Sequence record: PQ330092
Reading direction: 5' to 3' (one strand)
DNA length: 64,000 nt
Source: Escherichia phage JP4
Under the pieces are notes generated by a model. The model saw only the letters and a program-made list of their open reading frames with translations, was not told where the DNA came from and did no database searches. This document shows, piece after piece, positions 5,865-6,543 of the stretch; within the stretch, counting starts at the first letter, position 1, and each line of letters starts with the position of its first letter. The position numbers and the translations under genes were made by a program.

Positions 5865-6122
5865 ATGGCTGTAGGATACGCGAAAGATGGGGCCGAGCAA
5901 GACGAGATTAACGCAGTGATTCAGGCCGCCGTTAACCACGCTAGAAAGCAAATTAACGCACAAATAGAATCACTGATACATTGCCTCGACTGCGGCGATA
6001 AAATCCCTGAGAATCGACGCCAGGCCGTTATAGGGTGCATGTATTGTATTACTTGCCAGGAGGATCATGATAGTACTTTTAAAAGAGATCCGCGTAATTG
6101 TTGGCATAGATCTATGAGATAA
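5865..6122 (+). CDS. TraR/DksA-family C4-type zinc-finger protein (85 aa)
   Basis: C-x2-C-x17-C-x2-C (CLDC...CITC) with I-x3-R spacing typical of TraR/DksA fingers; SD GAGG. Confidence 0.75.
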   Translation: MAVGYAKDGAEQDEINAVIQAAVNHARKQINAQIESLIHCLDCGDKIPENRRQAVIGCMYCITCQEDHDSTFKRDPRNCWHRSMR

Positions 6123-6128
6123 AAAGTA

Positions 6129-6156
6129 ATTGACAGTACTGAAAGATAGTGTATAA
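6129..6156 (+). promoter_or_regulatory. Consensus promoter TTGACA-16-TATAAT
   Basis: Read directly. Confidence 0.7.
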
Positions 6157-6186
6157 TGTTTTATATCTTAACTGAGGATAGTAATC

Positions 6187-6543
6187 ATGGGAATACAACA
6201 TATCACGCGTACTACTGACAATGGCGAGATCACTGGCTATCAAGTACAGGGCAAAGTAGCACAATTGCAGTACTGGTTTGTTAAACGTGGAATCATTGCA
6301 CCGGATCTTGATTATGACCGTGTAGCGTTTATTGATTCTCTTTATGTTGATCCTGATAGTCGGGGCAATGGTGAAGGTAACGAATTAATGAATGCCTTTA
6401 TCGATGCCGCCGATGATTCAGATTGTATCATCTTAGAATGCGATACGGGAGAAGATAACGCCTTTAATCTTAAAGAATGGTACGAAGGTTTCGGATTCGA
6501 GGTATTGATAGATAGTGAATATCCTATCATGATTTTATCATAG
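6187..6543 (+). CDS. GNAT-family N-acetyltransferase-like protein (118 aa)
   Basis: Motif A-like V-D-P-D-S-R-G-N-G-E-G-N-E-L; promoter 6129-6156. Confidence 0.65.
   Translation: MGIQHITRTTDNGEITGYQVQGKVAQLQYWFVKRGIIAPDLDYDRVAFIDSLYVDPDSRGNGEGNELMNAFIDAADDSDCIILECDTGEDNAFNLKEWYEGFGFEVLIDSEYPIMILS

Follow-up and report, generated by a model that had tools for sequence, protein, structure and literature searches.

The plasmid-encoded TraR and Orf73 of phage lambda insert an N-terminal helix into the secondary channel of Escherichia coli RNA polymerase (RNAP). Phage TraR homologues bind RNAP (PMC9239242), as did all five of the TraR homologues tested, and TraR residues Arg-48 and Arg-49 contact the rim helices and β'Si3 (PMC9239242), while TraR's C-terminal helix contacts βSi1. 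In DksA, the aspartates at the tip are required for function but are dispensable for RNAP binding. In the papers considered here, tests of TraR-type control were confined to a plasmid, temperate phages, and one likely prophage. GNAT acetyltransferases are known from polyvalent proteins of gammaproteobacterial phages, typically beside an ART domain, and were placed in a RimI-like clade with predicted protein substrates (Iyer et al. 2017, PMC5512222); those of jumbo phages were predicted to act on host proteins such as polymerase subunits (Iyer et al., PMC7824862). Here we compare with these systems two neighbouring genes of Escherichia phage JP4 (PQ330092), one encoding a zinc-finger protein of the TraR/DksA family and the other a GNAT protein, in a stretch of 64,000 nucleotides (nt) referred to as the window. 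We consider it probable that they are two independent accessory genes expressed early in infection, one for a YbiI-like finger that would bind RNAP, the other for a minimal GNAT that would acetylate a protein.

The original prediction had named both open reading frames (ORFs), and both were found where it placed them on the + strand (Table 1). The zinc-finger ORF encodes Cys-40-Leu-Asp-Cys-43, 17 residues, and Cys-61-Ile-Thr-Cys-64, which is exactly the predicted C-x2-C-x17-C-x2-C arrangement, and all four Cys residues are invariant in 49 homologues. Its assignment to the TraR/DksA family was borne out by Pfam zf-dskA_traR (PF01258; 37.1 bits, E 3.2e-9, gathering score 24.9), by PHROG 54, "DksA-like zinc-finger protein" (E 2.2e-18), by comparison with the Protein Data Bank (PDB), and by the predicted structure. 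The top match among solved structures was E. coli YbiI (2kgo), aligned from Met-1 to residue 69 with E 8e-12, and TraR in RNAP complexes came second (E ~1e-5, residues 18 to 71). By the Pfam and NCBIfam profiles taken together, the protein clearly belongs to the Pfam family but falls outside both the curated TraR group and the curated YbiI group.

Alignment of the homologues placed the protein in a YbiI-like clade common to Asteriusvirus and T4-like phages. The Asteriusvirus copies are 89–95% identical to the window protein, and the T4-like phages, among them Citrobacter phage Moon, Escherichia phage vB_EcoM_RZ, and Yersinia phages MHG19 and fHe-Yen9-01, form a tight group with 62–73% identity over the full length; the bacterial YbiI proteins of 88 amino acids (aa) share 42–51% identity with it. 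An amino-acid auxotrophic dksA mutant is rescued when YbiI is overexpressed, according to a report that did not display the data (Blankschien et al., PMC2613031), and this rescue is the sole functional hint for this branch of fingers. Compared with its 121Q orthologue, the finger gene carries 14 synonymous and 8 non-synonymous codon changes, and the GNAT gene 22 and 6, respectively. The synonymous excess indicates that these are real, selected genes and not chance ORFs, and both are under purifying selection. The window finger protein carries three substitutions, one at the tip (F5Y) and two within the finger (K56I and K59M), that were absent from all six of the Asteriusvirus orthologues compared. 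Among the PADLOC defence-system models, the finger protein gave marginal matches only (E ~0.006) and the GNAT protein none.

In the finger protein, Arg-51 and Arg-52 are invariant and aligned with Arg-48 and Arg-49 of TraR. The N-terminus M-A-x-G-[FYW]-A-K-D-G-A-x-Q is nearly invariant, with the window tip reading Tyr-5-Ala-Lys-Asp-8-Gly-Ala-10; Asp-8 is present in 44, Ala-10 in 46, and Gln-12 in 48 of the 49 homologues, and a MAFFT alignment puts the three on Asp-74, Ala-76, and Gln-78 of DksA. The AlphaFold model (predicted local distance difference test, pLDDT, 71.8) consists of a helix at residues 6–28, a zinc knuckle, a short helix at 62–68, and a tail of low confidence. A Foldseek search with this model returned YbiI first, then RNAP-bound TraR (6n57_M, template modelling score, TM, 0.49/0.56).

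The C-terminal end distinguishes the phage proteins. The last 12 residues of the window finger, R-D-P-R-N-C-W-H-R-S-M-R, hardly vary across the full set of 36 aligned phage sequences, and the longer tail F-K-R-x-P-R-N-C-W-H-R-S-M-R is near-invariant across Asteriusvirus and T4-like phages while the rest of the protein is only ~65% identical; position 75 varies among Asp, Pro, Gln, and Asn. Bacterial YbiI instead ends in Y-N-R-R-G-S-K-D-S-Q-L-R, and the two tails have in common Arg-77 and the terminal Arg only. The window protein contains two extra cysteines, of which Cys-58 is replaced by Val in 29 of 49 homologues and Cys-79 is conserved in the phage clade only. A second metal site composed of Cys-58, His-68, Cys-79, and His-81 was considered and dropped because Cys-58 and His-68 are not conserved.

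The GNAT protein contains the predicted motif A, Arg-59-Gly-Asn-Gly-62-Glu-Gly-64, which fits the R/Q-x-x-G-x-G/A consensus. Three Pfam families passed their gathering scores, namely Acetyltransf_1 (PF00583; 37.2 versus 20.7), Acetyltransf_7 (PF13508; 33.5 versus 27), and Acetyltransf_10 (PF13673; 26.3 versus 23.6), and PHROG acetyltransferase families were matched as well, so that profile searches had placed both proteins in their expected families above threshold. The Pfam match spans profile positions 53–116 of 116, i.e., the C-terminal half only. In an alignment of 40 relatives, Arg-59, Gly-62, and Gly-64 are conserved in at least 90%, Trp-98-Tyr-99 is invariant, and Phe-104 is invariant or nearly so, with Tyr-99-x3-Gly-103-Phe-104 representing motif B. 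The position of the motif B Tyr is that of the catalytic Tyr in many GNATs. Further conserved features of the family include an N-terminal G-x-x-x-G-Y segment and an acidic D-T-G-E turn after β5. The protein is 100% identical in 17 phage records, in which the flanking DNA is 91–97% identical.

The AlphaFold model of the GNAT protein (pLDDT 93.6) displayed the core β4-α3-β5-α4-β6-β7. Two strands (residues 4–10 and 13–21) and a helix (25–33) are followed by β4 (45–54), α3 (63–74), β5 (80–84), α4 (95–100), β6, and β7; the model therefore has only a β-hairpin and one helix before β4, and the usual β1-α1-α2 arm is absent. As modelled, the protein is a minimal form that keeps the acetyl-CoA binding core and lacks the α1-α2 arm. 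Foldseek found GNATs at probability 1.00; these were generic GNATs with query-normalised TM of 0.5–0.67, and the viral matches were further small GNATs of phages and giant viruses. N-terminal acetyltransferases and RimI were weakly favoured when the PDB was searched by profile. Together, the fold and profile searches (PDB, Foldseek, and NCBIfam) did not narrow the substrate.

A word-indexed protein search retrieved two relatives of the GNAT protein and an exhaustive one 290, of which 44 were below 1e-10. Most are 118–140 residues long and align end to end. Others are modules of larger proteins with ART-PolyVal, ParB_N, PARP, NUDIX, ASCH, or DUF5661 domains, for example ART-PolyVal + NUDIX + GNAT (P0113), GNAT + PARP + ParB_N (P0066), and ASCH + GNAT (P0070 and P0099). 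Based on these domain assignments, members of the family are either encoded by solo genes or built into phage polyvalent proteins. About 10 of the 149 representatives of the family start with MRAxEFIxE- or MKxxEIxxE-like sequences (P0059, P0068, P0074, P0076, P0083, P0094, P0099, P0107, and others), and similar N-termini were seen on neighbouring ORFs of an environmental 335-kb phage contig (L015, 2210-5375). These N-termini look similar to the sequence that targets internal head proteins of T4 to the capsid, which would suggest that some GNAT relatives are packaged and injected.

In phage CMSTMSU (MH494197.1, 120963-121313), the GNAT orthologue is an annotated fragment of 80 aa (P0002), and its tblastn match falls into three pieces. 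The gene looks disrupted, which is consistent with dispensability in some lineages or with sequencing errors, the record being marked "UNVERIFIED_ORG".

The original prediction took the two genes together as a joint manipulation of the host. In every Asteriusvirus that has both genes they are adjacent and on the same strand; however, phage slurp01 retains the finger gene and the downstream gene without the whole promoter-plus-GNAT cassette. The breakpoints lie in repeated promoter sequence (window 6123-6576 versus 2750-2840 of the slurp01 locus), and the flanks of the indel, TTGACAGTACT... and ...CAGTACTGTTATAGTACTT, are promoter-repeat sequence on both sides, suggestive of recombination between promoter repeats. 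On four T4-like contigs with a finger gene no GNAT gene was found nearby, and the finger gene stands among accessory genes of the tk region. We located GNAT-relative loci by a search with a 6-sequence GNAT alignment; among the 13 loci (12 viral contigs and Klebsiella phage 05F01), a finger gene occurred within 5 kb only in 121Q. The spread of the families is also unequal, with finger relatives in 929 phage records (tblastn) and GNAT relatives in 24. The two genes are thus not a conserved pair but independent accessory neighbours, and a functional pair was rejected on the T4-like neighbourhoods, slurp01, and the GNAT-relative loci. The two adjoin each other in one genus only, and the simplest explanation is that cassettes are shuffled within an array of accessory genes.

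The location of the genes is in agreement with an early role. The 5-kb region around them is 91–97% identical to Asteriusvirus Escherichia jumbo phages, whose genomes are ~350–385 kb, and it is a variable array of small accessory ORFs; nine neighbouring small ORFs were scanned, and none matched a known function. The window sequence 1-14905 recurs unchanged at 20115-35019, and the identity ends precisely at 14905/14906. A direct terminal repeat of 20,114 bp, present as two tandem copies joined at 14905/14906, would account for this, in which case the physical end of the genome would be at approximately that junction. As a result, every feature of 1-14905, including both genes, is present twice in the window. 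Within the repeat, both genes are ~11 kb from its left end, and in vB_Ec-M-J they are within the annotated 21,525-bp direct terminal repeat. Terminal repeats of ~20–21 kb were determined for several Asteriusvirus members, and the authors of the Sharanji study reported a phage-encoded sigma factor thought likely to work with host RNAP (PMC13070987, PMC11895373); neither gene is mentioned in these two genome papers.

Host-type promoter sequences precede both genes. The stronger of the two promoter-like sites upstream of the finger gene is probably the start of a transcription unit that holds a 48-aa ORF and the finger gene. The perfect consensus promoter of the GNAT gene starts eight bases past the finger stop codon and forms the left boundary of the cassette missing from slurp01, while the promoter-like site behind the GNAT gene, which precedes the next gene (6622-6810), forms the right one. 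One repeat copy (14906-35019) contains 20 + strand promoters with at least 11 of the 12 σ70 consensus positions, for example at 24553, 25129, 26244, 27282, 28523, 28862, and 31713. The discriminators of these 20 promoters are 22.5% GC versus 38% for the whole repeat. Their common cassette consists of an A-rich stretch, TTGACA, a spacer with AGTACTG, TATAAT, an AT-rich discriminator, and CATCAAG, and it is often closed by the GC hairpin GGGGAGAA...TTCTCCCC. We take these cassettes to resemble the promoter-plus-stem-loop modules of T4-type phages, and they appear to mark breakpoints at which gene cassettes were gained or lost. Promoters sensitive to DksA and TraR are those with GC-rich discriminators and short-lived open complexes, so phage promoters with AT-rich discriminators would be expected to escape a TraR-like inhibitor.

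In the reading that we favour, the two genes act from the ~20-kb direct terminal repeat of an Asteriusvirus jumbo phage, a group proposed to rely on host RNAP, and each would be transcribed from host-type σ70 promoters. The finger protein would enter the secondary channel of E. coli RNAP with its N-terminal helix, as TraR and lambda Orf73 do, and shift initiation off kinetically fragile host promoters, such as those of rRNA and ribosomal-protein genes, without a need for ppGpp (guanosine tetraphosphate). Phage consensus promoters with AT-rich discriminators would be spared. The minimal GNAT, with its acetyl-CoA binding core and the presumed catalytic Tyr retained, would be catalytically competent and would acetylate a host protein early in infection.

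Several observations weigh against this reading. The finger protein scored 79.2 against the NCBIfam YbiI equivalog NF008243 (cut-off 96; match over residues 1–73 of 85) and 50.7 against the TraR subfamily TIGR02419 (cut-off 59.7), and the TraR model NF010268 gave 30.8 bits versus a cut-off of 108. The first Asp of the DxxDxA tip motif, Asp-71 in DksA and Asp-3 in TraR, is Phe, Tyr, or Trp in 49 of 49 homologues, and the D3N variant of lambda Orf73 was much less active. Moreover, equating Asp-8 with Asp-6 of TraR requires a shift of one residue from the ungapped HMMER alignment, and the register of the tip relative to TraR is accordingly a putative one. Where TraR has its C-terminal helix, the model has the short helix 62–68 and the low-confidence residues 69–85, with a sequence unlike that of TraR. 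Thus the predicted likeness to TraR and DksA held for the family and the spacing of the finger, but the protein is not a canonical TraR. For YbiI itself, Blankschien et al. considered iron metabolism the likelier role (PMC2613031). As for the acetyltransferase, its fold and profile matches are generic and include small-molecule acetyltransferases.

Four alternatives were weighed against two independent genes acting on the host. A functional module, in which the finger docks on RNAP and the GNAT acetylates RNAP or the finger protein itself, would account for the constant adjacency of the genes in Asteriusvirus, and it has a parallel in Rac, a GNAT of phiKMV-like phages cited as acetylating the RNAP α subunit (Iyer et al., PMC7824862). 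It nevertheless appears highly improbable in view of the perfect promoter between the genes, the deletion in slurp01 bounded by promoter repeats, the T4-like finger loci that have no GNAT neighbour, the single finger-bearing locus among the 13 with a GNAT relative (121Q, of the same genus), and the unequal number of records with each family. The finger could also bind RNAP without regulating initiation in the manner of TraR, serving mainly as a plug that excludes DksA, GreA, and GreB, or its conserved basic tail could recruit another partner. The aromatic first tip residue across the clade, the phage-specific tail that stays nearly invariant in an otherwise divergent protein, and the dispensability of the DksA tip aspartates for binding all speak for such a role, and Rnk is a precedent for a channel-competing factor. 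We regard it as unlikely, since Gp34 of X. bovienii, which is naturally without Asp-3, binds RNAP as well as TraR does and still inhibits rrnB P1, at higher concentration, and since the reported complementation of dksA auxotrophy by YbiI implies a DksA-like activity.

The GNAT protein may, on the other hand, act on a small molecule or an aminoacyl-tRNA, candidates being polyamines, compounds resembling antibiotics, and defence signals derived from nucleotides. Phosphinothricin, aminoglycoside, glyphosate, agmatine, and spermine acetyltransferases as well as the tRNA-acetylating toxin AtaT are indeed among its matches, but these are generic, at 11–24% identity, and N-terminal acetyltransferases and RimI are among the best profile matches. 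The α1-α2 arm, which is absent in the model, usually shapes the small-molecule pockets of GNATs, and relatives are embedded in polyvalent proteins beside ART domains, a context predicted to modify proteins; this substrate class is therefore possible but doubtful. Lastly, one or both genes could be passengers that the phage can do without and that do not affect the host in any meaningful way, in line with the loss of the GNAT gene from some relatives, its broken copy in CMSTMSU, and the variable small-ORF array in which it resides. The synonymous excess in both genes, the identity of the GNAT protein in 17 records despite diverged flanks, and the conservation of the finger clade across distantly related virulent phages make this very improbable. 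More speculatively, the YbiI-like fingers of virulent T4-like and jumbo phages, with their aromatic first tip residue and invariant tail, might represent a functionally distinct class of secondary-channel factors whose output differs from that of TraR, for example by blocking or by tail recruitment, and the mini-GNAT might be an early-expressed counterpart of GNAT modules that other phages inject within polyvalent or internal head proteins, acetylating a specific takeover or defence target in the first minutes of infection; we think this reading is rather unlikely.

Table 1. Features of the zinc-finger and GNAT locus in the window.
Feature	Position	Strand	Basis or remark
Promoter-like site TTGACA-17-CATAAT, TG before −10	5538..5566	+	11/12 consensus positions; member of the repeated promoter module
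Copy of the 16-nt motif, CTAACCCATAGGGTGC	5591..5606	+	Leader, between two promoter-like sites
Second, weaker promoter-like site TTGATC-16-TATAAT	5654..5681	+	10/12 consensus positions
48-aa ORF	5719..5865	+	ORF list; PHROG 38664, E 4.4e-35; gp293 in 121Q
Zinc-finger gene, 85 aa	5865..6122	+	Pfam PF01258; YbiI/TraR alignment; 49 homologues; AlphaFold model
Perfect σ70 consensus promoter TTGACA-16-TATAAT, dedicated to the GNAT gene	6130..6157	+	12/12 positions
Ribosome-binding site GAGGA	6174..6178	+	Sequence; 8 nt ahead of the GNAT ATG
GNAT gene, 118 aa	6187..6543	+	Three Pfam GNAT families; alignment of 40 relatives; AlphaFold; Foldseek
Promoter-like TTGCAT-17-TATAGT, then GC hairpin AGGGGAA...TTCCCCT	6547..6604	+	Sequence; slurp01 alignment
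Second copy of both genes, identical	25979..26657	+	679-bp region, offset 20,114; other terminal-repeat copy

Upstream of the two main genes, the stop codon of the 48-aa ORF overlaps the start codon of the zinc-finger gene (TAATG), and likewise in 121Q the last base of gp293 is the first base of gp294. This overlap suggests translational coupling; the 48-aa ORF and the finger gene are probably translated together, and the conserved 48-aa product could be a functional partner of the finger protein. The leader of this operon carries one copy of a 16-nt motif, CTRRCCCANNGGGTGC, which was found 12 times in the window versus 0.15 matches expected by chance, at 3933, 5591, 11222, 13475, and 18085 on the + strand and 16010, 18161, and 19693 on the − strand, plus the repeat copies. 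Most copies are ~25–30 nt downstream of a promoter −10 hexamer, and several are followed by a second promoter-like site within 40–90 nt. The core of the motif, ACCC-N3-GGGT, is palindromic, and covariation among the copies supports no structure; the motif may serve as an operator or as a short leader. An Rfam scan for a known RNA in the finger-operon leader gave no match anywhere in the window, the leader and the 16-nt motif included.

Both genes were already named as such in GenBank records of related phages. BAU.Micro_ELP-22 and vB_Ec-M-J list a "DksA-like zinc-finger protein" and an "acetyltransferase", 121Q a "C-4 type zinc finger protein" and an "acetyltransferase", and Turkey3 names the GNAT orthologue "PaiA acetyltransferase". 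Neither gene will surprise specialists, as both carry names in GenBank and published predictions cover both roles. Host manipulation is a reasonable reading, which the literature already contains in general form; from the original prediction an early role in the host stays plausible, given the terminal repeat and the near-consensus σ70 promoters, but a joint action found no support in a GNAT gene with its own promoter, in slurp01, in the T4-like loci, or in the one of 13 GNAT loci with a finger gene. New here are the assignment of the finger protein to a YbiI-like clade, marked by a variant tip and a tail specific to phages; the pared-down GNAT architecture, which connects the protein to polyvalent proteins; the position of both genes in a terminal repeat, with the resulting duplication in the window; the independent promoters; and the lack of conserved linkage.

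If the reading of two independent early genes is correct, a phage proposed to use host RNAP would carry a ppGpp-independent TraR-like switch and a protein acetyltransferase at both ends of its genome, and the finger clade would extend TraR-type control to strictly virulent phages. The natural tip variant xxxDxA and the new tail would be ready tools for probing the action of secondary-channel factors. As a compact and confidently predicted enzyme, the mini-GNAT could yield a new host-takeover or anti-defence activity.

Comparison of the GNAT protein with described enzymes revealed likenesses of different depth. RimI and Rac of the phiKMV-like phages are GNATs that modify the transcription or translation machinery; RimI was the top NCBIfam match of the window protein, but at 20.5 bits, far under the cut-off of 86.4, and Rac was set beside it by description only. 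AcrVA5, a phage mini-GNAT that acetylates Cas12a, is also very small (6iuf_A, 96 residues) and showed the highest target-normalised TM (0.77) and the lowest root-mean-square deviation (2.6 Å) among the best-ranked matches. With 17% identity, no specific sequence kinship, and no CRISPR context, this is a likeness at the level of the superfamily only. As with the GNATs of polyvalent proteins (PMC5512222), homologues of the window protein occur in multidomain proteins, and solo versions exist too; unlike those modules, the window gene, a putative member of the family described in that study, is a solo gene of 118 aa with an early promoter.

The finger protein was likewise compared with described proteins. 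E. coli YbiI, a DksA/TraR paralogue, is its best sequence and fold match, and the N-terminus MAxG[FWY]A(K/N)D(G/D)A is found in both; in contrast to YbiI, the phage protein has its own tail in place of the bacterial one and scores under the equivalog cut-off. With TraR and lambda Orf73 it shares the single helix and C4 zinc knuckle, the CxxC-x17-CxxC spacing, the Arg pair, a D-x-A near the N-terminus, and the origin from a mobile element of a proteobacterial host, and its predicted fold matches RNAP-bound TraR. It differs from TraR in the overall sequence (~26% identity) and in NCBIfam scores below cut-off. An aromatic residue stands where DxxDxA has its first Asp, the protein is longer by 12 residues, and its basic C-terminal tail is both unlike that of TraR and highly conserved. 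Finally, whereas TraR and Orf73 belong to a plasmid and temperate phages, the clade of the window finger is found in strictly virulent jumbo and T4-like phages.

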